From Thermoflexia bacterium (GTDB lineage Bacteria; Chloroflexota; Anaerolineae; B4-G1; DUEL01), in assembly GCA_011192125.1 (NCBI GenBank), contig DUEL01000005.1, positions 1,512 through 65,511 on the forward strand: a DNA stretch of 64,000 nt, given 5' to 3'. The notes under the pieces were generated by a model. The model worked only from the letters and a program-made list of their open reading frames with translations, made no database searches and was not told the origin of the DNA. The translations under genes and the position numbers were made by a program. Each line of letters starts with the position of its first letter. Within the stretch, counting starts at the first letter, position 1. This document shows, in pieces, positions 18,536-38,935 of this stretch.

Positions 18536-18578
18536 GTTTCACACCATCTCACAATCCACCAACCGAAGGAGTTGCACG

Positions 18579-21500
18579 ATGCCGTCCGGAGATCCTCGAT
18601 CCAAGTCGGACTTTCTTTTCCGCGCTGACCTTGAAGAGATCGCCCCGTTCGTCGCCGAACTGATCCGCTGGGAGGCGGAGCGGCAGGCCCGCAAACTGAT
18701 CCTCATCCCCTCTGAGTCGTACGCCCCAAAAGCGGTCCGTGAGGCCCTGGGCTCCGTTTTTCAGAACGTCTACGCCGAAGGGTACCCGCCGCTGCGGATG
18801 ACCCGCGATCCGGAGGTCCGATTGCGGGACGTGGCCTGGCAGTTGGCCTTCTACCGCCGTTACGCCGACCGGCGGTTCTACAAAGGGGTGGACTACGTCC
18901 ACTTCGTCGAGTGCCTGGCCCAGCGGCGGTGCGCCGAACTGTTCGCCCACGACGGCCTGCGCCCCGAGCACATCTACGTCAACGTCCAGCCCCTCTCCGG
19001 CGCGGCGGCCAACCTGGCCGTCTACCAGGCGCTGATGGAGCCGGAGGACGTCCTGATGGGGATGGACCTCTACCAGGGCGGCCACCTGACCCACGGCTCG
19101 GAGTTCAACCTCTCCGGCCAGCGATACCGGGTGGTCTCCTACGGGGTCGATCCCAAGACGGAACGGCTGGACTACGACCAGATCCGGGATCTAGCGCGGC
19201 AACACCGCCCGAAGGTGATCGTCGCCGGGTACACGTCGTACCCCTGGGCGCCGGACTGGCACGCCTTCCGGGAGATCGCCGACGAGGTGGGGGCCTACCT
19301 GATGGCGGACATCGCCCACACCGCAGGGATGGCCGCTGCCGGGGTCTACCCCAACCCCGTCGGCATCGCCGACGTGACCGTCTTCACCACCCACAAGACG
19401 ATCTGCGGGCCGCGCGGCGCGGTCATCCTCACCACCGACGAGGGACTGGCCCAGGCGATCGACATGGCGATCTTCCCCGGCGAGCAGGGCGGTCCCCACG
19501 TCAACAAGTTCGCCGCGATGGCGGTCGCCTTCCGCATCGCCCAGACGGAGGAGTTCCGCCGCCTGCAGCACCAGATCGTCGCCAACGCCCGCGCCCTGGC
19601 GGAGGGGCTCCAGAAGCGAGGGCTGAAACTGGCCTACGGCGGCACCGACACCCACCTCCTGCTCATCGACCTGAAGTCGATCCCCTCCGACACCGGCTTC
19701 CCCCTGTGGGGTGAGCCAGCGGTCCGCATCCTCGACCTGGTCGGGATCGTCGCCAACAAGAACACCATCCCCGGCGACACCGAGACCGCGCTGGCCACAG
19801 GGGTCCGGCTGGGAACCCCCTGGGTCACCCAGCGCGGGCTCGACGAGGCGGATATGGACACCCTCGCCGGGCTCATCCACAAGGTCCTGACCAACATCAA
19901 GCCCTTCGCCTACAACGGCCTCATCGGCACCCTCCCGCGCGGCAAGATCGATCTGGACGTGATGGAAGAAGTGCGGGCAGGGGTAGCGGAGTTGGCGGAG
20001 AAGGCGGGGATCGATTTTGAGTACACAAAGAGCGGATACCCGCACTTCTGGGAAGCGGGGATGCAGGGAAACGATGGAGGGACACACAGCCGTGCGCCCC
20101 GTGCCCTGCGGGTGACGGGCTGGCGGGCGCGGCAGTTCGTCCAGCAGGTGGTGACGGCGAACGTCGCCGAACTGGCCCCCGGCGAGTCGGCAGAGGCATA
20201 TATGCTCGACCGGCACGGCGGTCTCATCGCCGAGGTGACGGTGGAGCGGGAGGAGCCGGACCGGTGGGGGCGGGATCGCTACCTGATCACACCGGCCTCC
20301 AACGGCGCGCGGGTCGCCGCCTGGCTGCGGGCCCTCTCCGACGGGTACACACTGTTCGACGAGGAGGACGTGTTCCGGAAGGTGGAGGGGCCGGTGGTGG
20401 TGGAGGAGATACCTCACCCCTCCCCCGCCGCCTCCGGCGGCACCCCCTCCCCTCTCCCATCTGGGAGAGAGGAGGGGGCCGGGGAGTGGGGTGAGGTCCT
20501 GGCCACCCACCCGGAGCGGTTCGACCTGACCAAGCCGTACTTCGTGGGCCAGGCGCATCTGAGAGCGTTCGCGCCGAAGGTCGAGCGGGAGGAGTGGCAC
20601 TGGGAGGAGCCGGAGGCCCCCCTGAAGCGGACGCCGCTGTACGAGGTCCACAAGCGGATGGGCGCCAAGATGGTCCCCTTCGCCGGGTGGGAAATGCCGG
20701 TCTGGTACACCTCGGTGAGCGAGGAGCACCGGGCGGTGCGGGAGGCCGCCGGCCTGTTCGACGTAGCCCATATGGGGGTGTTCGAGATCACCGGTCCGCA
20801 CGCCACTGCCTTCCTGGACACGGTCTGTTCCAACTACGTCGCCTGGCTGGAGGACGGCCAGTCCCTCTATGGCTACCTGCTCGACCCCGACGGGCGGGTG
20901 ATCGACGACGTGATGATCTACCGGCTCCGGGCCGACCACTACCTGATGGTGGTCAACGCGGCCAACGAGGAGAAGGACTGGGACTGGCTGAACGCGGTCA
21001 ACGAGCGGCGGGTGGTCATCGACCGGGACCGGCCCTGGGTGCAGGTGGAGGCCCAGGCGGTGCTGCGCAACCTGAAGGACCCGGCCTCCGGCGAGCGGCA
21101 GAAGCGGGACCTGGCGTTGCAGGGACCTGCGTCATTGCCCACCCTCCAGGCGCTGACCAACGACCCGGACGTGAAGGCCGCACTGCGCAGACTGCGCCGG
21201 ACCGAGTTGATGGAGTGCGAACTGGCGGGGATCCCGCTGGTGGTGGCCCGCACCGGCTACACCGGCGAGGAGTGGGGGTTTGAGATCTTTGTCCACCCCG
21301 ACGACGCCCCTCGGCTGTGGGAGGCCATCCTGGAGGCGGGAGAGGCCTTCGGCGTGAAGCCGTGCGGCCTGGGCGCGCGGGACAGCCTCCGCACCGAGGC
21401 CGGACTTCCCCTCTACGGCCACGAACTGGCCGGCCCGTTCGACATCTCCCCCATTGAGGCCGGCTTCCCCGGCTACGTCAAGTACCACAAGCCGTTCTTC

Positions 21501-21872
21501 GTCGGCCGCGACCCGCTCCTGGCCCGGGAGAAGGACCGCAGGCGGGAGGTCATCCGCTTCCGGGTCAACGAGAAGGGCGTCCGCATCCCCCACCTGGGCG
21601 ACCCCGTGGTCAACCGGAAGGGGCAGCAGATCGGCCACGTGACCAGTTGCTCCATCGACGTCGAGGGGTATCTGGTAGGGATGGCGATCGTCGAGAAGCG
21701 GTACAACGTGCCGGAGACCCCCATCGCCGTCTTCCCCCTGGGCGGCAAGTCGCTGGACGAGGCGCTGCTGCGCGGCAAGCGGGTCGCCCTGCCGGTGGCG
21801 GCGACGGTGTTGACGCGGTTCCCAGAAAGGGAAGAGGGGAGACCGAGGATGAGAATGGGTGGGGAGGATTAG
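18579..21872 (+). CDS. Fusion protein. N-terminal serine hydroxymethyltransferase-like PLP domain, a middle GcvT-like partial domain, and a C-terminal complete aminomethyltransferase (glycine cleavage T protein).
   Basis: SHMT motifs LIPSESY...YAEGYP and the PLP-Lys motif [13 protein letters not shown]. GcvT motifs [26 protein letters not shown]...LFDVAHMG. Single continuous 1098-codon frame from the ATG at 18579. Confidence 0.8.
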
Positions 21873-21874
21873 TG

Positions 21875-22597
21875 ATGAGACGAGAGACCTTCGACATCCT
21901 GTTTCTTGTGGCCCGTCCGGCGGCGGGGAAGAGCGAGATCATCGATTATCTCACACGGACGGACGTGGAGGAGCGGCGGCGCCGGTTCCACATCGGCCCC
22001 TTCGAGGTACTGGACGACTTCCCGATGCTCTGGACCTGGTTTGAGGAGGACGCGATCCTGCGCAGGATGGGCTACCCCGGCCTCCACACCGACGAGGAGG
22101 GATACTTCAAGTATCCGTACCTCTGGCACCTCCTCATCGAGCGGCTGGCGCTGGAGTTCCAGAAGCGAGAGCGGGATCGACCGCCCGACCAGGAGGTCAC
22201 CACCATCGTGGAGTTCTCCCGAGGCAGCCCGTCGGGCGGCTACCGGGAGGCCTTCCGCCACTTCCCGGAGGAGATGCTGGCACGGGGTGCGATCCTGTAC
22301 GTGCGGGTCTCCTACGAGGAGTCGCTGCGGAAGAACCGGCTCCGGTTCAACCCGGACCGGCCCGACTCCATCCTGGAGCACAGCCTGCCGGACGAGAAGA
22401 TGGAGCGACTGTACAAGGAGGACGACTGGGATGATTTCACGTCGGCGGACCCGGAGTATGTGGAGGTGAAGGGGGTGCGAGTGCCCTATGCGGTGTTTGA
22501 GAACGAAGATGACGTGACGACGGAGCGAGGGGAACCGCTGGGGCAGCGGTTGGAGGTCGTTCTGGACCAGCTCTGGGCGATCTGGTCCCGCAGGTGA
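21875..22597 (+). CDS. P-loop kinase-fold hypothetical protein (Walker-A-like ARPAAGKSE)
   Basis: LFLVARPAAGKSEIIDYL near the N-terminus; ATG overlaps the upstream stop (TGATG). Confidence 0.55.
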   Translation: MRRETFDILFLVARPAAGKSEIIDYLTRTDVEERRRRFHIGPFEVLDDFPMLWTWFEEDAILRRMGYPGLHTDEEGYFKYPYLWHLLIERLALEFQKRERDRPPDQEVTTIVEFSRGSPSGGYREAFRHFPEEMLARGAILYVRVSYEESLRKNRLRFNPDRPDSILEHSLPDEKMERLYKEDDWDDFTSADPEYVEVKGVRVPYAVFENEDDVTTERGEPLGQRLEVVLDQLWAIWSRR

Positions 22598-22601
22598 GCG
22601 C

Positions 22602-22670
22602 TGTTTCACCGCAGAGATGCAAAGGGCGCAGAGGTTTCCACGGTTTTTCGCAAAGGTAAAGAGACGATGC
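22602..22670. repeat. Family-A repeat (degenerate right arm)
   Basis: tttcaccgcagagatgcaaagggcgcagagg. Confidence 0.5.
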
Positions 22671-23665
22671 GGAAAGGCGTATCTACTCGACCACCCGTCT
22701 TCGTCACTCGCCCCATCCCCGAGGCCGGCCTCCGCCGGGTGCGGGACGCCTGCGAGGTCCGGATGTGGGAAGGGGAACTACCTCCACCCAAGGAGGTGAT
22801 CCTCAAAGAAGTGGCCGAATGTGAGGGCTTGCTTTGCCTGCTGACCGACCCCATCGACGCGGAGGTGGTCGGCGCCGGAAGACACCTTCGGGTGATCAGC
22901 CAGATGGCTGTGGGGGTCGACAACATCGACCTGGAGGCCGCCACGGCGCGGGGGATCCCCGTCGGCCACACACCAGGGGTCCTCACCGAGGCCACCGCCG
23001 ACCTGACCTTCGCCCTGCTCCTCGCCGCCGCACGGCGCATCCCGGAGGGGATCGAGTACGTCCGCCAGGGACGGTGGCGCACCTGGGAGCCGATGGTCCT
23101 CCTCGGGAGGGAGGTCTGGGGGAAAACGCTGGGCATCGTCGGACTGGGGCGCATCGGGACGGCGGTGGCCCGCCGCGCGCGGGGGTTCGCGATGCGGGTC
23201 CTCTACCACAGCCGAAGCCGCAAGCCGGATCTGGAGGCGGAACTGGGCGTGGAGTACACGCCGCTGGACGACCTGCTGGCTCAGGCCGACTTCGTCAGCC
23301 TCCACTGCCCGCTGACCCCCGAGACCCACCACCTCATCGACGAGGAGGCGCTGCGCCGGATGAAGCCGACGGCGATCCTGATCAACGCCGCCCGCGGGCC
23401 GGTGGTGGATACCGACGCGCTGCTGCGGGCGCTGCGGGAAGGCTGGATCGAGGCGGCCGGTCTCGACGTCACCGACCCCGAGCCGCTGCCGGCGGACCAC
23501 CCCCTGCTCGACCTCCCCAACTGCATCGTCATCCCCCACCTGGGCAGCGCGACGGTCGCTGCAAGGGAACGGATGGCGACGATGGCGGCGGAGAACCTGC
23601 TGGCAGGGCTGCGTGGGGAGCGGCTGCCGTACTGCGCGAATCCCGAGGTCTACGAGGCCAGATGA
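22667..23665 (+). CDS. D-isomer-specific 2-hydroxyacid dehydrogenase (glyoxylate/hydroxypyruvate reductase-like)
   Basis: NAD-binding GxGxxG ([13 protein letters not shown]), catalytic [20 protein letters not shown]. Confidence 0.8.
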
Positions 23666-23681: not shown

Positions 23682-24095
23682 ATGGGACGAGTGATCTCCA
23701 CGGAAGGACCAGGGAAGATACGGAATCAGCATCGGCGGACGATCGCCGAGGTGTTGCGGATTTTGAGCCAGAAGCGGGAACTGGACGAGGAGGTGAAGGA
23801 CCTGGCCGCCGTCATCGTCTTCTCGCTCCACGGCATCGCCGACACGGTGGAGCAGACGACGGCGGCATGGGATAAGAGGAACTATTACCTCAAGGCCGAC
23901 CGGTTCCGACGGGAGTGGGCCTGGGTCGAGGAGGCGATCGAGGAACTGAGCGACCTCATCTACCGGGGACGTTGGGAGCATCTCCCCGCCTTCCTGGCCC
24001 GGTTGGCCCCCCGCTTCGCCGACGTGAAGGTATCCCGCCTGACCCGCAACCCATCCCTTTGGAAAGGGGCCTACCAGCGCTTCATGCAGGAATGA
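23682..24095 (+). CDS. Hypothetical protein (137 aa)
   Basis: ORF with no recognisable motif; followed by a strong palindrome. Confidence 0.4.
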   Translation: MGRVISTEGPGKIRNQHRRTIAEVLRILSQKRELDEEVKDLAAVIVFSLHGIADTVEQTTAAWDKRNYYLKADRFRREWAWVEEAIEELSDLIYRGRWEHLPAFLARLAPRFADVKVSRLTRNPSLWKGAYQRFMQE

Positions 24096-24203: not shown

Positions 24204-25529
24204 CTAGAGCCGTTCCTCCGGCCCGACGGGCAGCGCCACCAGGCCGCTGATCACCTTGGGATAGAAGTCGGTGGACTTCTGCGGCATCCGCTCGCTGGCG
24301 GCGGTGCAAGCCCGCACCTGCTCGATGCGGGTGGGGTTCATCAGCAGCAGGAACTGGGCCTCCCCCTTGTCCACCGCCGCAAAACCGGGCGTGGGATCGC
24401 GCAGGTAGTCGATGTTCTCCTTCCGCTTGACCGCCTCTTTGTCGATCCCCAGCACCCGCTCGATGAACAGTTCGTGCAGGACCACCACGTCCAGCATCCG
24501 CCAGTCGGCAGCGCGGTCGGGCAGGAGTTGGGCCATCACGCCTGGATCGCGCAACTCCAGCACCGCGTAGGCCCCGTCGTAGAAGCCGAAGCGCGGGTGG
24601 TCGGGCCTAGCCTCCGCCAGCGCCTTCTCCACCGCCGCCCGGTCCGAAGCGGGCGTCACCTCGAAGTACTCCTTCGCCTTCTCCAACGCCGCCTTCCCAT
24701 CCATCCGGGTGTAGGAGTGGATGAGCCGGTGGGTGGGGAGGATCACAAGACCCGGATCGCTCATACTGACCAGCGTGACCATCGTGTAGTTGAAGGCGGC
24801 GTCGGCGGGGGCGTCCGGGTATTTCTGGCGCATCTCGTCCCGGAAGGTGAGCGCGGTCTCGTACCGGTGGTGCCCGTCGGCGATGATCAGGTTCCGCTTG
24901 GGGGCCATCTCCTCTGCCACAGCCCGGATCACCTCCGGATCGTCCACCACCCAGAACCGCTGTTCCACCGCGCTCTCGATCACCTGCTCCCGCGCGACGA
25001 TCGGCTCGTGCGTCTCCAGATAGGACTGGAGAATGGAGTTGACACGGTTCTCGTCGTCGGGGTAGAGGATGAAGATGTGCCCCCAGGCCGTCTCGGTGGC
25101 GCGGAACAGGTTCAGCCGATCCACCTTGGGACCGGAGAGGGTCCGCTCGTGGGGGAGGATCACCCCCTCGTCGAAACGGGTCAGTTGGAGCGCGGCGCTG
25201 AACCCCCGGCGGGTGCGGGTCTCGCCGGTCGGCGTGGTGTAGGTCTGCTCCAGGACGTAGATCGCCGGCCGCTCCTCCCGCATCAACACTCCCTCCGCCA
25301 ACCAGGTACGGGCGTAGCAGCGAGCGCGGGTATAGACATTGTCCGTCTCGCTATCCCACGGCGTCGCCTTGCCCCGGATGATGCGGACGAAGTTGTAGGG
25401 GCTCAGTTCGTAGTACCGCTCCTGCTGCGGCTCGTGGATGCGGTCGTAGGGCTGGGTGATCACCTTCGAGAGGTCGCCGACCTTCTCGACGTTGTAGCGC
25501 AATCCGCGAAACGGTTTCACAATCGCCAT
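24204..25529 (-). CDS. DUF1015 family protein
   Basis: N-terminal MAIVKPFRGLRYN typical of DUF1015. True start is MAIVKPF; the ORF extension MSSVSLWW comes from the repeat element. Confidence 0.7.
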   Translation of the reverse strand: MAIVKPFRGLRYNVEKVGDLSKVITQPYDRIHEPQQERYYELSPYNFVRIIRGKATPWDSETDNVYTRARCYARTWLAEGVLMREERPAIYVLEQTYTTPTGETRTRRGFSAALQLTRFDEGVILPHERTLSGPKVDRLNLFRATETAWGHIFILYPDDENRVNSILQSYLETHEPIVAREQVIESAVEQRFWVVDDPEVIRAVAEEMAPKRNLIIADGHHRYETALTFRDEMRQKYPDAPADAAFNYTMVTLVSMSDPGLVILPTHRLIHSYTRMDGKAALEKAKEYFEVTPASDRAAVEKALAEARPDHPRFGFYDGAYAVLELRDPGVMAQLLPDRAADWRMLDVVVLHELFIERVLGIDKEAVKRKENIDYLRDPTPGFAAVDKGEAQFLLLMNPTRIEQVRACTAASERMPQKSTDFYPKVISGLVALPVGPEERL

Positions 25530-25639: not shown

Positions 25640-26323
25640 CTAAAACTCCGCCTTGTAGAACGACACCACGGTCACCACGTAGGCGATCATCTTCGGCAGC
25701 ATCAGCATCCCCGCGATGGGGTACCGGTCGACGAAGAGGATGGTGCCGAGGTAGCAGGTGAAGGAGACGATCACCGACCACCCGGCGACGGTCAGCCATT
25801 TACTTCCGGCGCGCAGGAACATCCCGGCGAGGACGAACCCGGCAAAAGCAAAGGGGATATTCCGGTAGATACGCCACGCGGGGGCCGGGCCACCCCAGTT
25901 GTTCTGGGGGAAGAAGAGAAGCACCACACGCACCGCCAGCGCTGCCACCACCAGCCACTCTACCCAGGTCCACGGATGGCCCGTCTTCTCCTGGCGGTAC
26001 AGGAGGGCGAAAAGATAGAAGAAAGTAAGCGTGAAGGAGGTGGCGAAGGAGCCGACGCCGAGCCAGGAGACCAGGTAGCCGCCCCAGTGGAGGGCGATCG
26101 CCTCCACACTGGAGAGGGTCCGGTGGGCGTAAGCGACGATGTGGACCGTGTCGCCGAGGATCAGCGTGACCACCGCCGCCAGCAGCCAGCGACTGCTCCT
26201 CTGCTGCTCCGGCGACTGCTGCCCGTACCGCCTGATCATCAACGCGGCGACGGTCAGGATGCTCGCCAGGTAGGCGAAGTTGAGCAGATTGACGACGATC
26301 CCCATAGGTCCGGTGGTAGGCAT
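25640..26323 (-). CDS. Integral membrane protein (about 6 TM helices), hypothetical
   Basis: Hydropathy pattern; lies in the riboswitch-controlled operon. Confidence 0.5.
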   Translation of the reverse strand: MPTTGPMGIVVNLLNFAYLASILTVAALMIRRYGQQSPEQQRSSRWLLAAVVTLILGDTVHIVAYAHRTLSSVEAIALHWGGYLVSWLGVGSFATSFTLTFFYLFALLYRQEKTGHPWTWVEWLVVAALAVRVVLLFFPQNNWGGPAPAWRIYRNIPFAFAGFVLAGMFLRAGSKWLTVAGWSVIVSFTCYLGTILFVDRYPIAGMLMLPKMIAYVVTVVSFYKAEF

Positions 26324-26391: not shown

Positions 26392-27306
26392 CTACCCCAT
26401 CCTCTGCGCGAACTCGATGGCGATGCGGGCCACCTCCTCGCCCACGCGGGCCTTCGCTTCTTTGGTCCCCGCACCGATGTGGGGCGAGCCGATGACCTGT
26501 GGCAACTCCATCAGCCGCTTGCCCCGGTCCTCCTTCTCGTCCTCGAACACGTCCAGCGCTGCCCCCGCCACCTTGCCGCTGACGATAGCGTCGTACAGCG
26601 CCCCCTCGTCCAGCGTTCCGCCCCGGCCACAATTGATGATATAGACCCCGTCCTTCATCTTGGCGAACTCCTCCGCGCCGATGAGGTAGTGGGTCTCCGG
26701 GGTGTGGGGGACGTGGAGGGAGATGAAGTCGGAGCGGGCCAGGAGTTCGTCCAGGGAGACCTGGGTAGCGCCGGGGACCTCGACCCGGGTGCGGCGGTAG
26801 TAGATGACCTCCATCCCCAGCGCGGCCGCCTTCTGGGCCACCAGGCTCCCGATCCGACCGCAGCCCACCAGCCCCAGTGTCTTCCCGGCCAGTTCGATCC
26901 CCTTACTGAAGGCCTTCTTCTCCCACTTTCCTGCCTTCATCGACGCGGTGGCCTGGGGGATCTGCCGGGCCAGGGCGAAGAGGTAGCCGATGGTCAACTC
27001 GGCCACCGAGTTCGAGGAGGCGGCCGGGGTGTTGCGCACCTCGATCCCTTTCGACTGGGCGTACTCCACGTCGATGTTATCCAGCCCCACCCCACCGCGG
27101 ATGATCAACTTCAGGTTGGTCGCTTTGTCGATGAGGGGAGCACGGACCTTGGTGCGGCTGCGGACGACGATGGCGTCGTAGTCATCGATGACCGCCTCCA
27201 GTTCCTCCGGCGAGATGTCGTCCCGCACGTCCACCTCGATCCCCGCCTCGCGCATCGCAGCGATGGCTTTTTCATCGGTTGGGTCGCAGATCAGGAGCCT
27301 CATCAT
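26392..27306 (-). CDS. Short-form D-3-phosphoglycerate dehydrogenase-like 2-hydroxyacid dehydrogenase (no ACT domain)
   Basis: GGVGLDNIDVEYAQSKGI...GLVGCGRIGSLVA; catalytic His region HIGAGT. Confidence 0.8.
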   Translation of the reverse strand: MMRLLICDPTDEKAIAAMREAGIEVDVRDDISPEELEAVIDDYDAIVVRSRTKVRAPLIDKATNLKLIIRGGVGLDNIDVEYAQSKGIEVRNTPAASSNSVAELTIGYLFALARQIPQATASMKAGKWEKKAFSKGIELAGKTLGLVGCGRIGSLVAQKAAALGMEVIYYRRTRVEVPGATQVSLDELLARSDFISLHVPHTPETHYLIGAEEFAKMKDGVYIINCGRGGTLDEGALYDAIVSGKVAGAALDVFEDEKEDRGKRLMELPQVIGSPHIGAGTKEAKARVGEEVARIAIEFAQRMG

Positions 27307-27319
27307 TACCTCCTTAGAC

Positions 27320-28387
27320 TTACAATCCCAGAATATCGTTGATCTGCTCCAACAGCCACTTGATGTCCTCCACCGTCAGGTCGCCCATGTGTGCGATACG
27401 GAAGCACTTTTCCTTCAGATCACCGTAGCCGTTGGAGATGATGGCACCCCGCTTGCGCAGTTCCTCGTTCAGCCCGGCGACGCTGATGCCGCGGGTGTTC
27501 TTGACATTGGTAACGGTGAGGGAGAGGTACCGCTCGTCGGAGTAGAGGGCGAAGTACTCGCGGGCCCAGTCCTGCACGATGGCCGCCATATCCTTGTGCC
27601 GCTGCCACCGGTTCTCCAGCCCCTCGGCCAGGATGTCGTCCATCTGCTTGTTGAGGGCCCAGATCAGGCTGATCGCAGGGGTCGCCGGGGTCTGGTGCTT
27701 CTCGTACTTCTTATCCATCTGCTCGTAGGAGAAATAGTAGCCCGGATTGGCGACCTGCCTGGCCCGTTCCCGCGCCCGGTCGCTCACCGCGCAGACCGTC
27801 AGCCCAGGCGGGAGGGCGAAGCACTTCTGCACACCAGCCAGGCAGACATCCAGCCCCCAGGCGTCGAACTCGATCTTCACCCCGGCCATACAACTGACCG
27901 CGTCCACCAGGATGAGCACGTCGGGGTACTTGTCGTGGATGAGGGCGGCGATGTCCTTGACCGGGTTCATCACGCCGGTGGAGGTCTCGTTCATCACGAT
28001 GGTCACCGCGTCGTACTCGCCGCTGGCCAGCGCCTCATCCACCATCTCCGGCGTGATCGCCTGCCCCATCGGCACCTCGATCTTGTCGCAGGGGATGCCG
28101 TTCGCCTTGGTGATCTGGTGCCACCGCTTGGAGAAGGCACCGCAGACGGTGTTGAGAACCTTCTTGGTGGAGGCCTGCCGGACCGAACCCTCCATCACGC
28201 CGGTTGACGAAGAGGTGTAGAGGTAGACCCGCTGCGTGGTGTAGAGAAGTTTCTGGAGTTTGGGGGTCACCTCAGCCTGCAGCGCCGAGTACTCCGGCGT
28301 CCGATGGCCGATCATCGGGACCGTCTGAGCCTGCAGAACCTCCTCCCGAACGTGCGTCGGACCGGGGATAAACAGTTTCGGATACAT
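27320..28387 (-). CDS. Class-V aminotransferase (serine-glyoxylate / alanine-glyoxylate / phosphoserine aminotransferase family)
   Basis: MYPKLFIPGPT N-terminus; PLP-Lys motif GVQKCFALPPGL. First gene downstream of the glycine riboswitch. Confidence 0.8.
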   Translation of the reverse strand: MYPKLFIPGPTHVREEVLQAQTVPMIGHRTPEYSALQAEVTPKLQKLLYTTQRVYLYTSSSTGVMEGSVRQASTKKVLNTVCGAFSKRWHQITKANGIPCDKIEVPMGQAITPEMVDEALASGEYDAVTIVMNETSTGVMNPVKDIAALIHDKYPDVLILVDAVSCMAGVKIEFDAWGLDVCLAGVQKCFALPPGLTVCAVSDRARERARQVANPGYYFSYEQMDKKYEKHQTPATPAISLIWALNKQMDDILAEGLENRWQRHKDMAAIVQDWAREYFALYSDERYLSLTVTNVKNTRGISVAGLNEELRKRGAIISNGYGDLKEKCFRIAHMGDLTVEDIKWLLEQINDILGL

Positions 28388-28435: not shown

Positions 28436-28660
28436 AAGAAAAAAGGGGAACGCACGACCGGCATGCATTCCCCCTGTCCACGACCTGAGAGATTCCCCAC
28501 CCTCCGCCGGAGGGCGGGTTGCCCCGTCGGTGCCCGGCGGGCTCTCCAGGGGTGGCTACGACACGGGGTCCTTTTACCTGAGAGTTTCACCGACGACGTC
28601 CGGTCCCCACCGTCGGCTTGCCCCTTCGGTGCCTCCGACGAGGTCTCTCCCCCGTGTCCG
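28436..28660 (-). promoter_or_regulatory. Tandem glycine riboswitch (two aptamers) with an intrinsic-terminator expression platform
   Basis: Minus-strand aptamer 1: GGGGGAGAGACC...GGCACCGAAGGGGCAAGCC...GUGAAACUCUCAGGUAAAAGGAC. Aptamer 2: CUGGAGAGCC...GCACCGACGGGGCAACC...GAAUCUCUCAGGUCGUGGACAGGGG. Then terminator GGGGAATGCA-N9-TGCGTTCCCC + TTTTTTCTT, then RBS GAGGAGG and the ATG. Confidence 0.88.
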
Positions 28661-28699
28661 CCACGGACGATCAATTTACTCTTTGGATCGACAGAGCCC

Positions 28700-28727
28700 A
28701 TTGTAGCAAATCCTTCCGAGATGTCAA
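28700..28727 (-). promoter_or_regulatory. Promoter TTGACA-N16-TACAAT driving the glycine riboswitch
   Basis: Exact -35, near-consensus -10, about 35 nt upstream of the aptamer 1 P1 stem. Confidence 0.5.
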
Positions 28728-28774: not shown

Positions 28775-29587
28775 ATGGCAAACAGGTATCCACTTGCGAC
28801 CTGGCGACTCGTCCTCTCCCCCCCGGCCGACGGGGCCACCCATATGGCGGTGGACGAGGCGATCTGGGAGGCCGTCGCTGTCGGTCGGGCTCCCCCCACC
28901 CTACGCCTCTACTCCTGGTCGCCCCCCTGTCTCTCGCTGGGGCGCAACCAGCCCGTGACGACGGTCAATCGGCAGGCCCTGCGGGAACGGGGATACGACC
29001 TGGTCCGCCGTCCCACCGGCGGGCAGGCCGTCCTCCACATCGACGAACTGACCTACAGCGTGATCCTCCCCCTCTCCGACCCCCGTGCCCAGGGAGGCAT
29101 CCTGGAAAGTTGTGAGCGCCTCAGCGCCGGGCTGGTCCGCGCTCTGGAAATCCTCGGCGTGGCGGGAGCCGTCGCCCGCCGCCGTCCCCACCCCCCTCAG
29201 GCCCGCGGCCCGGTCTGCTTCGAGACTACCGCCGACTTCGAGGTCGCCGTCGGCGGAAGGAAACTGATCGGCAGCGCGCAGCGCCGAGGGCGCGGGACCC
29301 TCCTCCAGCATGGCGCGCTCCCCCTCTGGGGGGACATCACCCGCATCTGCCCCCTCCTCGTCCCCCCGGCGGACCCCCAGCGAGTGGCCGCACGCGCCAC
29401 GACGCTGGAGGCGGTCCTTAGTCACCGTATCTCTTGGGAGAGGGCTGCGGAGGCGATGATAGAAGGATTCGCCCAGGCACTGAACCTCCGCCTGGAACCC
29501 GACGGACTGACGCCGGAGGAGCGCCAGCGTGTCGAGCAACTCCGGCAGGAGAAGTACGCCAGCGAAGGGTGGACCAGCCTGGTCTAG
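28775..29587 (+). CDS. Lipoate-protein ligase / octanoyltransferase (BPL_LplA_LipB family)
   Basis: LYSWSPPCLSLGRNQ, RRPTGGQAVLH, the conserved Lys region, and GRKLIGSAQRR. A possible leaderless start: TAAAAT -10 ends 9 nt before the ATG. Confidence 0.75.
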   Translation: MANRYPLATWRLVLSPPADGATHMAVDEAIWEAVAVGRAPPTLRLYSWSPPCLSLGRNQPVTTVNRQALRERGYDLVRRPTGGQAVLHIDELTYSVILPLSDPRAQGGILESCERLSAGLVRALEILGVAGAVARRRPHPPQARGPVCFETTADFEVAVGGRKLIGSAQRRGRGTLLQHGALPLWGDITRICPLLVPPADPQRVAARATTLEAVLSHRISWERAAEAMIEGFAQALNLRLEPDGLTPEERQRVEQLRQEKYASEGWTSLV

Positions 29588-29632: not shown

Positions 29633-30502
29633 TTACGGTCCAAGCACGATGACGTTGATCACCGTGGGCAGAACGACGTGGTTGCCCCCCGTGGCGAGCG
29701 GGACCCGCGCCTGTGGCGCTCCGGCGAGGTAGAGGCCGACGGCGAGCCGGGCCTCTCCGGTGTACGCCGCTCCCTCCTCGTTGAACACCAGCACGTGGGG
29801 GTCGACGATCACCTCCCCGGCGACCCACCCGGTCGTCGGCCGGGCCCCACCGGCAGGAGGACCGTCGTGCTGGGCGATGAGCCGTCCGTCCGGCGTTAGC
29901 AAGTGGGTGAAAACGACGTATTCGGCCGTCGCCGCGCCCTCCAGCGCCCGCCAGTACAGGGTCAAAGCGACCCCCTCACCGCTGGTCACCTGGTCGTTCG
30001 CCAGGTCGTACCCCACCAGTTCGGCCACATCGCCGAAGCGCGCGCCCACCGGAATCGAAGGCAGGCCCTCTCCGGCCTGAGCCGCTGGCGTGCTTGTCGG
30101 CGGCTCCGTGGGGAGAGCGGTCGGCGGCGGGGGAGGGGGAACCGTCGGAGGAAGGGTCGGCAGTTCTCCCGCCACCGGTGTGGCCGTCGGTGTGGGAGAG
30201 GGGATCGGCGTCAACCCAAACGAAACCTCGGGCGTGGGAGAGGGCTCCAGGTTGGGCAGGGCGCGGGGGATGAAGTACGTCTGCAGGAGGAACACCGCCA
30301 CCCCGACCAGCACGAACCCCAAAGCGGTCCCCCACAGCCGGTTAGCCTGGGCGGTGATCATCTCCCGTTCGAAGGTGGTCAGACTGGCTCCCAACCGCTG
30401 CTGGACGGCAAGGGCCCGAAAGAGGTAGATAAGGGCCCCCAGCCCGCAGACAGCGTAGATGATCCAGGAGAAATCGATCAGCCAGGCCAGGAGGACCTTC
30501 AT
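29633..30502 (-). CDS. Membrane-anchored hypothetical with a Pro/Thr-rich linker and a C-terminal beta-rich domain
   Basis: Two N-terminal TM helices; PTPTATP/PPPPPP linker. Confidence 0.5.
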   Translation of the reverse strand: MKVLLAWLIDFSWIIYAVCGLGALIYLFRALAVQQRLGASLTTFEREMITAQANRLWGTALGFVLVGVAVFLLQTYFIPRALPNLEPSPTPEVSFGLTPIPSPTPTATPVAGELPTLPPTVPPPPPPTALPTEPPTSTPAAQAGEGLPSIPVGARFGDVAELVGYDLANDQVTSGEGVALTLYWRALEGAATAEYVVFTHLLTPDGRLIAQHDGPPAGGARPTTGWVAGEVIVDPHVLVFNEEGAAYTGEARLAVGLYLAGAPQARVPLATGGNHVVLPTVINVIVLGP

Positions 30503-36852: not shown

Positions 36853-38640
36853 CTACAAAGACCGATGCTCCCGAACCGCCTCCAGCGCCAGGTCGATGAA
36901 CGCCTCCACCGACATCGCCCCTGGCACCTCACCATCCCGGCGGCGCAGGTTGACCTGTCCGGCCTCCATCTCCCGGTCGCCGATGACCAGCATATACGGC
37001 ACCTTCTCCATCTGCGCGTCCCGGATCTTGGCCTGCATCCGGTCGCTGGAGTCGTTCACCTCCACACGGAGGCCGACCTCCCTGAGCCGCCTCGCCACAT
37101 CGTAGGCGTAGTCCACGTGCCGGTCGGCGATGGGGATGAGGACCGCCTGGACGGGGGCCAGCCAGACGGGGAAGGCCCCGCCGTAGTGCTCCACCAGGAT
37201 GCCGAAGAACCGCTCCAGACTGCCCAGCAGCGCCCGGTGGACCATGTAGGGCCGGTGCTCCTTCCCGTCCTCCCCCACGTAGGTCATATCGAACCGCTCC
37301 GGCAGGTTGAAGTCGAACTGGATCGTCGTGCACTGCCAGAGCCGGCCGAGGGCGTCCTTGATCTTGATGTCGATCTTGGGACCGTAGAACGCCCCGCCTC
37401 CCTCGTCCACCTCGTAAGGCAGTCCCTCCGCCTCGATCGCCTTGCGCAGGCTCTCCTGCGCCTGCTCCCACCGCTCCGGCTCCCCCACGTGCTTCTCCGG
37501 CATCGTCGCCAGATAGACCTCGAACTCCTCGAAGCCGAAGGCGCGGAGCAGATCCAGCGAGAACCGCAGCACCTCCAGGACCTCGTCCTCGATCTGCTCC
37601 GGCGTGCAGAAGATATGGGCGTCGTCCTGGGTGAAGCCCCGGACCCGGAGCAGGCCGTGCAGGACCCCGCTCCGCTCGTACCGGTACACCGTCCCCAGTT
37701 CCGCCCAGCGCATCGGCAGTTCCCGATAAGAACGACGACGGCTCTTGTACATCAGGATGTGGAACGGGCAGTTCATCGGCTTGATGAAGTACTCCACCCC
37801 TTCGACGTCCATCGGCGCGTACATACTCTCCCGGTAGAAGTCCAGGTGACCGGACCGCTCCCAGAGTTGTGCCCGGCCGATGTGGGGGGTGAAGACGATC
37901 TCGTAGCCGCCCTTCCGGTGCTGCTCCCGCCAGAAGTCCTCGATCACCTGGCGGATGCGGCCACCCTTGGGATGCCAGTAGGCCAGCCCGGGACCGCCCT
38001 CCTCGTGGAAACTGATCAGGTCCAACTCCTTGATCAACCGCCGGTGGTCCCGCTTCTCCACCTCCTCCCGCCAGGCCAAGTACTGCCTCAGTTGCTTAGG
38101 CGTCTCCCAAGCGGTGCCGTAGATCCGCTGCAGCATCGGCCGCCGCTCGTCCCCCCGCCAGTACGCCCCGGCGACGCTGAGCAACTTGATCGCCTTGGGG
38201 TTGATCTCTTTGGTGTTGGCAACGTGGGGGCCGCGACATAGGTCAACGAACGGACCGTGCCGATAGATAGAGAGGACCGGCTTCCCCTCCACCGGCCGCC
38301 CGTGCTCGTCCATCCCGCCGGAGAGGATCTCGTCGATCAACTCCAGTTTGTAGGGCTGGTCGGCGAAGAGGCGACGGGCCTCCTCCTCGTCGATCTCCTC
38401 GTAGACGAAATCGTACCCCTCGGCGATGATCTCCCGCATCCGGGCCTCGATCTCCTCCAGGTCCTCCGGAGTCAACGGCCGGGGGAGGTCGAAATCGTAG
38501 TAGAAGCCGTTCTCAATGGCCGGACCGATGGCCAGTTTGGCACCAGGGAACTTCTCCAGCACCGCCTGGGCCATCACGTGGGCCGCCGAGTGACGGATGC
38601 GCTCCAGCCGACCGTTCTCCTGTTCCTTCTTCTTCGACAT
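36853..38640 (-). CDS. thrS: Threonyl-tRNA synthetase
   Basis: TGS/editing and class II core motifs (HRALLGS..., GPKIDIK); start at the ATG 38640 preceded by a GGAGG RBS. Confidence 0.92.
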   Translation of the reverse strand: MSKKKEQENGRLERIRHSAAHVMAQAVLEKFPGAKLAIGPAIENGFYYDFDLPRPLTPEDLEEIEARMREIIAEGYDFVYEEIDEEEARRLFADQPYKLELIDEILSGGMDEHGRPVEGKPVLSIYRHGPFVDLCRGPHVANTKEINPKAIKLLSVAGAYWRGDERRPMLQRIYGTAWETPKQLRQYLAWREEVEKRDHRRLIKELDLISFHEEGGPGLAYWHPKGGRIRQVIEDFWREQHRKGGYEIVFTPHIGRAQLWERSGHLDFYRESMYAPMDVEGVEYFIKPMNCPFHILMYKSRRRSYRELPMRWAELGTVYRYERSGVLHGLLRVRGFTQDDAHIFCTPEQIEDEVLEVLRFSLDLLRAFGFEEFEVYLATMPEKHVGEPERWEQAQESLRKAIEAEGLPYEVDEGGGAFYGPKIDIKIKDALGRLWQCTTIQFDFNLPERFDMTYVGEDGKEHRPYMVHRALLGSLERFFGILVEHYGGAFPVWLAPVQAVLIPIADRHVDYAYDVARRLREVGLRVEVNDSSDRMQAKIRDAQMEKVPYMLVIGDREMEAGQVNLRRRDGEVPGAMSVEAFIDLALEAVREHRSL

Positions 38641-38935
38641 TTCCCCTCCTTGCAACACAGAGTCTCTTAAAGAAAACCCCCGCGCCCCTTGGGGCGCGGG
38701 GGTCTCCCACGCGGTTCCACCCAAGTTCGGCGGTGAAGCGACTCACCGCCGCACTCTGAGGCTGTAACGGGCCTTCCCGGAGCCCCATACTCTCGCCGAA
38801 GCGATTTCAAGGGCCCACTCCCGGGGGGTTTTCCCGACCGTCCGGTCAAGGGGGCTTCCAGCCACGACCCCCTCTCTCTGGGACCTTCTCAGGCCGGTAC
38901 TCGTCCCGGTCAACGCTTTCACACTCTCGATTGTG
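38641..38935 (-). promoter_or_regulatory. T-box leader (Thr-specific) upstream of thrS
   Basis: T-box sequence AACUUGGGUGGAACCGCGUGGGAGACC with a UGGA bulge (discriminator U of tRNA-Thr). Overlapping terminator CCCGCGCCCC-AAGG-GGCGCGGGGG + UUUUCUUU. Stem I region contains ACC (Thr codon). Confidence 0.75.

Follow-up and report, generated by a model that had tools for sequence, protein, structure and literature searches.

A tandem glycine riboswitch ahead of a serC-like, serA-like and DUF1015 operon in Anaerolineae

What is a glycine riboswitch doing in front of genes other than those of glycine cleavage, and in which direction do the enzymes under its control run? These questions are raised by a locus of a Thermoflexia bacterium (Chloroflexota; Anaerolineae), which lies in a stretch of 64,000 nt (assembly GCA_011192125.1, contig DUEL01000005.1, positions 1,512-65,511) that was analysed as a whole and that we call the window. 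Here, a tandem glycine riboswitch precedes an operon of four genes, encoding a serC-like aminotransferase, a short SerA-like dehydrogenase, a membrane protein and a DUF1015 protein. We think it probable, while leaving real room for doubt, that this is an ON riboswitch driving an operon that runs the phosphorylated serine pathway in reverse, from glycine and serine to 3-phosphoglycerate. Positions of the riboswitch and operon are given in window numbering; all of these elements lie on the minus strand, where high to low numbers read 5' to 3'.

The glycine riboswitch and its expression platform

An earlier reading of this DNA, made from the sequence alone (hereafter the sequence-only reading), had proposed a tandem glycine riboswitch on the minus strand, and the Rfam scan that it suggested indeed gives two RF00504 matches above the gathering score of 32, both spanning model positions 1-94 (Table 1). 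The two aptamers abut at 28556/28555 and share one terminator 3' of aptamer 2, and the core nucleotides are all intact in both. Read against the Rfam alignment, P1 of aptamer 2 pairs CCCCUG (28552-28547, 5' strand) with CAGGGG (28476-28471, 3' strand). The P1/P2/P3/P3a-b architecture is backed by covariation, with 13 of the 25 pairs compensatory among 14 aptamers. When 48 homologous aptamers were aligned, 92.7% of cells were paired, versus 80.4% in shuffles and 26-44% with slid partners, and double compensatory changes were seen in 14 of the 25 pairs. This RNA is an ordinary RF00504 member with a classical ON platform, and its sequence suggests that it binds glycine.

The consensus-like promoter that had been noticed 5' of the riboswitch is also there, matching the consensus at nearly every position and carrying a TG extension. 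The 8-kb region has 3 promoter-like sites, versus 0.5 expected from shuffles, and a TTGAC...TGnTAnAAT promoter occupies the matching relative position in five related loci (L001, L002, L003, L013 and L028).

The expression platform is an intrinsic terminator, the only such site that the scan found on the minus strand. Its stem (28475-28443) has 13-14 bp (14 counted pairs), is followed by TTTTTTCTT, and has a folding energy of about -21 to -29 kcal/mol. Five nucleotides, AGGGG (28475-28471), are common to the 3' strand of aptamer 2 P1 and the 5' arm of the terminator, and because both structures need them, they are mutually exclusive. Folded without constraints, the complete leader has aptamer 1 and the terminator in its minimum-free-energy structure but no P1 of aptamer 2, while constraint folding with the P1 3' strand made unavailable loses the terminator. 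The sequence-only reading had described a 10-bp stem and U-tract directly before the ribosome-binding site of the first gene. A terminator with a U-tract does precede that gene, but its stem is longer, and about 36 nt separate the U-tract from the ribosome-binding site (GAGGAGG, 28400-28394). The ON-switch layout that it had proposed was borne out, mutual exclusivity included, since part of the P1 3' strand of aptamer 2 doubles as terminator sequence.

The gcvT riboswitch of Bacillus subtilis, which experiments have proven to be an ON switch that works by way of a terminator (PMC5666159), is built in the same way: two homologous aptamers serve one platform, and a terminator that forms without glycine competes with P1 of aptamer 2. 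The difference is in the genes, which are gcvT-gcvPA-gcvPB in B. subtilis and serC-like, serA-like, seven-transmembrane (7-TM) and DUF1015 genes in these Anaerolineae. By its layout, the window leader would thus be a transcriptional ON switch of the gcvT type, and an ON response in vivo can be expected from its sequence. When glycine is absent, the P1 3' strand of aptamer 2 would enter the 13-14 bp hairpin, and with the U-tract this would halt transcription before the first gene. When glycine is present, P1 would form, the base of the hairpin would be lost, and RNA polymerase would continue into the four genes.

How widespread is this arrangement? The closest DUF1015 proteins and loci come from metagenome-assembled genomes (MAGs) of Anaerolineae/Anaerolineales (Chloroflexota), L001 being 98% identical. 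A tblastn map of 34 genome loci includes 17 whose sequence reaches 300 nt or more beyond the 5' end of the aminotransferase gene; the riboswitch stands directly 5' of that gene in six of them and is absent from the other 11. Two more loci, L016 and L025 (CAZKDJ01), have an aptamer upstream of the aminotransferase that is cut by the contig end. Tandem aptamers were recognized by Rfam in L001 (CAZOLN01), L002 (DROW01), L003 (JBDOIF01) and L012, and the second aptamer is visible by eye in L013 and L028. We also scanned metagenomes with the aminotransferase, which gave 80 loci at 80% identity or higher, and searched these with a covariance model (R1) built from 14 aptamers. The model matches 39 of the 80, always just 5' of the aminotransferase and on the same strand; the riboswitch is present in about 36 of the 68 whose upstream sequence is 300 nt or longer. 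Since this model reports one aptamer per locus, tandem arrangements were established by visual inspection and motif searches. Where the riboswitch is absent, Rfam gave no alternative leader RNA in the 10 loci scanned. In a neighbour-joining tree of 101 aminotransferase sequences, all riboswitch-bearing loci fall in one derived clade, with riboswitch-less members scattered within it. This pattern tentatively suggests, from a tree without branch support, a single gain of the riboswitch and then repeated loss.

Given this history, one could ask whether the window leader is itself a decaying or non-functional relic, leaving the operon effectively constitutive or under some other control. Loss and decay are indeed common in the clade: about half of the relatives have no riboswitch, aptamer 2 is truncated and the terminator missing in L052, and only one aptamer is left in L076. 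The window leader, however, keeps both aptamers above the Rfam threshold over the full model with their cores intact, together with a strong terminator and a near-consensus promoter, and its conservation, with compensatory changes, extends to L001, L002 and L003. We consider it very improbable that this leader is a relic.

The operon and its predicted enzymes

Four minus-strand genes 3' of the leader were singled out by their codon-position GC content. They are separated by gaps of 13, 68 and 110 nt, and the terminator scan found no terminator-like site between them. The composition given by the sequence-only reading, that is, a class-V aminotransferase, a short SerA-like dehydrogenase, a membrane protein and a DUF1015 protein instead of gcvT, stands, except that the membrane protein has seven predicted transmembrane helices and not six. 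The order aminotransferase, SerA-like dehydrogenase, DUF1015 is shared by about 22 Anaerolineae genome loci and by most of the metagenome loci that are long enough, and in the window the DUF1015 gene likewise adjoins the serA-like and serC-like genes.

The best solved relative of the aminotransferase, by a wide margin, is 2dr1 (232 bits), a 'serine aminotransferase' of Pyrococcus horikoshii that is uncharacterised, while the serine-glyoxylate aminotransferase 6pk1 scores 130 bits. Among NCBIfam models the best match is the aspartate-glyoxylate aminotransferase BhcA, well under its cut-off. We call this gene serC-like, and not serC, because it has no equivalog-level match to a characterised phosphoserine aminotransferase.

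The second gene product is closer to the phosphoglycerate dehydrogenases (PGDHs) than to other 2-hydroxyacid dehydrogenases, as far as sequence can tell. On the PGDH model TIGR01327 its score is 356.8 bits, from a match to the catalytic half (positions 1-299 of 525), versus 223 bits on the glyoxylate reductase model, and its top PDB matches are all PGDHs (257-220 bits, with human PHGDH at 257) versus 184 bits for glyoxylate reductases. Its score is under the TIGR01327 equivalog cut-off of 454 bits, a failure that is expected and says nothing about the substrate, because the 525-position model includes regulatory domains absent from this 304-aa protein.

The fourth gene encodes an unambiguous DUF1015 protein, with 299.5 bits on PF06245 (gathering score 25.8) over profile positions 1-324 of 325. 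Searching the PDB with its sequence gave no match. Its AlphaFold2 model (predicted local distance difference test score, pLDDT, 80.8; predicted template-modelling score 0.79) has as its only confident Foldseek matches in the PDB the free serine kinase SerK of Thermococcus kodakarensis (5x0j, 5x0k, 5x0e and 5x0b) and a Pyrococcus furiosus homologue (1vk1). These five structures are matched with a Foldseek probability of 1.00, E values of 1e-4 to 8e-4 and target-normalised template-modelling scores of 0.47-0.56, while all remaining matches have a probability below 0.25. The similarity is remote: it extends over only a part of the 441-aa model, identity is 12-13%, and the query-normalised score is about 0.3. 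The model thus points to a kinase-like fold, and we propose the protein as a candidate serine kinase.

It had been suggested that this locus assigns a physiological context to DUF1015, but the family already had one. A serC-serA-DUF1015 operon is known from Clostridioides difficile (bioRxiv 10.1101/2024.10.14.618325, 2026 GapMind preprint; Hofmann et al. 2018), and the same preprint proposed the family name SerBK, noted that the predicted fold of DUF1015 resembles the serine kinase SbnI, and reported that a Bacteroides thetaiotaomicron homologue is required for the use of L-serine as nitrogen source (10.1101/2024.10.14.618325).

The third gene encodes an orphan membrane protein without a family match in Pfam or NCBIfam profile searches. 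Its family is very small: a search of 5.8 billion proteins gave 20 homologues, and wherever their source names include an organism, it belongs to the Chloroflexota. The model, compared with the PDB, has a generic GPCR/rhodopsin-like 7-TM fold in which TM2 and TM3 are separated by a beta-hairpin. The lysine in the middle of TM7, Lys211 of the motif MLPKxxAY, is invariant; GDxxH (in TM2) and PQNNW are further conserved motifs. The identity of a microbial rhodopsin was considered and rejected, as there is neither a sequence-family match nor fold similarity beyond the generic 7-TM bundle. This gene lies between the serA-like and DUF1015 genes in the window, L001, L002, L004 and L115, and follows the serA-like gene in several other loci; a 38%-identical homologue is located elsewhere.

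Table 1. Features of the riboswitch-operon locus and of its neighbourhood in the window
Feature	Position	Strand	Basis
Sigma-70-type promoter, TTGACA-16 nt-TACAAT with TG extension (extended -10)	28700..28727	-	11/12 positions match
Glycine riboswitch aptamer 1	28556..28662	-	RF00504 66.9 bits, E 9.9e-12, full model; covariation
Glycine riboswitch aptamer 2	28464..28555	-	RF00504 42.2 bits, E 3.3e-05, full model
Expression platform: intrinsic terminator hairpin (28475-28443) and U-tract	28436..28475	-	scan, folding, P1 overlap
Gene 1: serC-like class-V aminotransferase, 355 aa, archaeal/clostridial type, ribosome-binding site GAGGAGG 28400-28394	27320..28387	-	PF00266 (Aminotran_5) 73.2 bits
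Gene 2: short SerA-like D-3-phosphoglycerate dehydrogenase, 304 aa, without ACT/ASB regulatory domains	26392..27306	-	PF02826 and PF00389 (NAD-binding and catalytic 2-hydroxyacid-dehydrogenase domains)
Gene 3: orphan 7-TM membrane protein	25640..26323	-	7 predicted helices, model pLDDT 91.9
Gene 4: DUF1015 protein, 441 aa, candidate SerBK serine kinase	24204..25529	-	PF06245
Fused serine hydroxymethyltransferase-aminomethyltransferase (SHMT-GcvT), 1098 aa, outside the operon and convergent with it	18576..21872	+	both halves above curated cut-offs
Glyoxylate/hydroxypyruvate-reductase-like 2-hydroxyacid dehydrogenase, convergent with the operon	22667..23665	+	PRK13243 430 bits
LplA-like lipoate-protein ligase, divergent from the riboswitch promoter	28775..29587	+	PF21948 120 bits

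The specificities that these sequence relationships suggest bear on a route put forward by the sequence-only reading: a non-phosphorylated, glycine-induced transamination, either from glycine to glyoxylate or from serine over hydroxypyruvate to glycerate. Spelled out further, glyoxylate would go on to glycolate, and DUF1015 would be an accessory that could, for example, phosphorylate glycerate. The class-V family does include serine-glyoxylate, serine-pyruvate and alanine-glyoxylate aminotransferases, among them 6pk1, and BhcA leads the sub-cut-off NCBIfam matches. Moreover, 2-hydroxyacid dehydrogenases are often promiscuous, and a glyoxylate/hydroxypyruvate-reductase-like gene is a conserved neighbour, kept beside DUF1015 in L001, L004, L011, L012 and L016. 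That gene, however, lies outside the operon on the opposite strand, beyond the control of the riboswitch, and the dehydrogenase inside the operon scores clearly higher on PGDHs than on glyoxylate/hydroxypyruvate reductases. In addition, the DUF1015 fold matches a free serine kinase and not glycerate kinases, and the best solved relative of the aminotransferase belongs to the Thermococcales, a group in which a class-V enzyme has been put forward as the phosphoserine aminotransferase of the SerK route. The non-phosphorylated routes fit worse on each of these points, and we regard them as quite unlikely.

The direction of the pathway

If the enzymes act on phosphorylated intermediates, glycine induction would make sense for a route that consumes serine. 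Surplus glycine would first become serine through the joint action of the glycine-cleavage system and the neighbouring SHMT-GcvT fusion. DUF1015 would then phosphorylate serine at the expense of ATP, the aminotransferase would turn phosphoserine into 3-phosphohydroxypyruvate, and the dehydrogenase would reduce the latter to 3-phosphoglycerate, feeding glycolysis. Phosphorylation by the kinase and the PGDH reaction in reverse are each favourable, and with ATP the route would therefore run downhill. We infer this direction of flux mainly from the sign of the switch: disposal or assimilation fits induction by glycine better, because an ON switch on a sole serine-biosynthesis operon would create a destabilising positive loop. 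Glycine-induced disposal is also the logic of gcvT and of the actinobacterial gcvT-gcvH-glyA-sdaA operons (PMC12452182).

The same genes could also be read as a serine-biosynthesis operon, from 3-phosphoglycerate to serine with DUF1015 taking the place of SerB, that is tuned by the riboswitch; in this scenario, either the ON logic would be wrong or glycine would serve to balance the serine, glycine and one-carbon pools. The C. difficile trio has been read as biosynthetic, and genomes with serC-serA-DUF1015 clusters mostly have no serB (10.1101/2024.10.14.618325). However, the kinase reaction run backwards was itself noted to be thermodynamically unfavourable (10.1101/2024.10.14.618325), and a pathway induced by the product of which it makes the precursor would be under positive feedback with no obvious benefit. 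Furthermore, the window and about 36 related leaders have the proven ON design, with a hairpin that starts in the P1 3' strand (GACAGRGG) and ends in a U-tract; these platform classes come from an automatic terminator classification corrected by inspection.

A different platform is found in L025, L098, L108, L111 and L059, which form one subclade of the neighbour-joining tree and whose leaders have no U-tract (L025 1-194; L111 1-126; each about 5700-6000 in L098, L108 and L059). Their hairpin has a 3' arm, GCGCCTCCT (GCGCCTTCT in L108), whose sequence complements the Shine-Dalgarno region AGGAGGCG; this group alone has the CG by which the Shine-Dalgarno sequence is lengthened. In constraint folding of these leaders, formation of P1 releases the anti-Shine-Dalgarno arm, which pairs with the Shine-Dalgarno sequence (about -22 kcal/mol), whereas without P1 the arm is held by the P1 strand and the Shine-Dalgarno sequence is free. 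Folding of these few sequences predicts that the sister subclade has a translational glycine-OFF switch, opposite in sign to that of the window.

This predicted switch is one of several observations that weigh against the assimilatory reading, as OFF logic is the sensible sign for biosynthesis and would suit a biosynthetic role of the same operon. The others are that the Clostridium botulinum DUF1015 protein CBO1128 complements an Escherichia coli serB mutant (10.1101/2024.10.14.618325), so that the family can serve biosynthesis; that the window DUF1015 is a distant family member, about 27-29% identical to its Bacteroidales homologues; that no NCBIfam model reaches its equivalog cut-off on the aminotransferase, with serC_3 at 73.5 bits versus 401; and that about half of the close relatives do without the riboswitch. 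With both sides taken together, we find a biosynthetic operon in the window unlikely and the reverse, assimilatory route the better account. It is tempting to speculate further that the trio serves one Anaerolineae clade as an ATP-driven means, inducible by glycine, to assimilate glycine-derived serine into 3-phosphoglycerate, that the sister subclade has been rewired to the opposite sign, and that the pathway is used both ways. We advance this fuller scheme tentatively, leaning slightly against it as a whole.

The proposed chemistry has a precedent in T. kodakarensis, where SerK (TK0378), the aminotransferase TK1548 and the PGDH TK1966 have been proposed to assimilate serine into 3-phosphoglycerate, with glycine entering via the glycine-cleavage system and SHMT (PMC5120207, PMC11032457). 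SerK is the best structural match of the DUF1015 model, and Pyrococcus enzymes are among the best solved relatives of both the window aminotransferase and the dehydrogenase. In contrast, SerK is a 240-aa ParB-like protein without detectable sequence similarity to DUF1015, and the archaeal genes, which are not under a riboswitch, mostly lie apart from one another. The C. difficile operon resembles that of the window in the gene trio and its order, and in a DUF1015 fold related to free serine kinases, but no riboswitch has been reported for it and the emphasis there was on replacing SerB in biosynthesis. A further comparison is offered by the actinobacterial gcvT-gcvH-glyA-sdaA operons, which are under tandem glycine riboswitches (PMC12452182). 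There, serine is deaminated to pyruvate by serine dehydratase, whereas here the exit would be 3-phosphoglycerate via phosphoserine. By analogy, the window operon would be the functional counterpart of sdaA in the actinobacterial glycine regulon, and a bacterial counterpart of the SerK route.

Glycine riboswitches outside the glycine-cleavage genes are not new in themselves. Although the sequence-only reading had presented the operon as an unusual glycine regulon, such targets are rare yet reported: serC was found under a glycine riboswitch in marine metagenomes in 2007 (PMC2211319), and serCA in Clostridium cellulolyticum H10 and Mesorhizobium (Meso_4248-serCA) in 2013 (PMC3766115). In these cases, too, a glycine aptamer is linked with phosphorylated-serine-pathway genes. 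Judged by their descriptions, they differ in covering one or two genomes, in the COG1932-type serC of the metagenomes, and in mentioning neither DUF1015 nor a switch sign, whereas the window has a class-V aminotransferase, DUF1015 and a 7-TM gene in the operon, an arrangement that recurs in dozens of Anaerolineae loci. For five Chloroflexota, the 2013 study gave only glycine riboswitch targets of the lplA-gcvTHP type (PMC3766115), and a large study of glycine-riboswitch contexts described cleavage-system and transporter contexts only (PMC6944388). In our literature search, no text connected DUF1015 with a glycine riboswitch. What is new here is the link to DUF1015/SerBK, the spread in an Anaerolineae clade, the ON sign and the possible change of sign in the sister subclade.

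The SerBK preprint leaves open how a kinase replaces the phosphatase and in which direction the pathway runs in the cell. A conserved glycine-ON riboswitch before serC-serA-DUF1015 provides, for this Anaerolineae clade at least, independent evidence from regulation in favour of a catabolic or assimilatory direction. If the fuller scheme is true, gene regulation would for the first time indicate which way the SerBK kinase works physiologically in bacteria, and the operon could be an exit branch of a glycine-centred (reductive-glycine-like) carbon route around the SHMT-GcvT fusions. The locus is also a compact and tractable system, made of one RNA of about 230 nt and three enzymes. With it, the serCA branch of glycine-riboswitch regulons, for which few cases are on record, reaches into a large group of mostly uncultured bacteria. 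Should the assimilatory reading be wrong, the locus would still have an ordinary, well-formed glycine riboswitch with an uncommon, previously reported type of target.

Neighbouring genes and variation among related loci

The SHMT-GcvT fusion of the window scores 432 bits in its SHMT part (cut-off 335) and 293 bits on the gcvT model TIGR00528 (cut-off 236); a full-text literature search found no description of such a fusion. With the genes for this protein, the glyoxylate-reductase-like enzyme and the lipoate ligase nearby, the neighbourhood is therefore devoted to glycine, serine and one-carbon metabolism. In many related loci, two SHMT-GcvT fusions flank the operon, one 75-81% identical and convergent, the other 51-53% identical and divergent; paralogues or orthologues occur in L004, L012, L016, L041, L050, L064 and others. 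The LplA-like gene is conserved in L001 and L002. A conserved P-loop-like open reading frame (ORF) with the motif ARPAAGKSE (21875-22597, plus strand) flanks the glyoxylate-reductase-like gene, and an ORF of 137-160 aa (orf160; 23682-24095, plus strand, in the window) is the convergent neighbour of DUF1015 in many related loci. Pfam and NCBIfam gave no match for either of these two ORFs or for the one at 29633-30502.

The operon itself varies in several relatives, and in some close ones defence or addiction genes have been inserted into it. A Phd/YefM-PIN toxin-antitoxin pair (L001, 8513-9190) and a 1094-aa gene resembling Type ISP restriction-modification systems (L002, 5162-8446) are inserted between the serA-like and 7-TM genes, and a PemK toxin with a small ORF (L115, 6386-6971) between the aminotransferase and serA-like genes. 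The trio is not always linked, since L005-L010, which are several Anaerolineae/Thermoflexales MAGs, carry a DUF1015 that is 77% identical to that of the window and stands alone, with no adjacent aminotransferase or SerA-like gene. In four riboswitch-less operons of the outgroup clade, and in these loci only, an imperfect palindrome, ATAGTATTATCAGCACTA, lies just 5' of a promoter-like TTGACAT...TATACT (L015, 1532; L019, 7774; L021, 7770; L026, 3630). We could speculate that this palindrome may be the operator of a protein regulator that replaces the riboswitch.

Apart from the two glycine aptamers, the only Rfam match in the window is a T-box of 105.6 bits (38922-38687, minus strand) before a threonyl-tRNA synthetase gene (36853-38724, minus strand). 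The start codon of this gene is probably further downstream, because its longest ORF overlaps the 3' end of the T-box.

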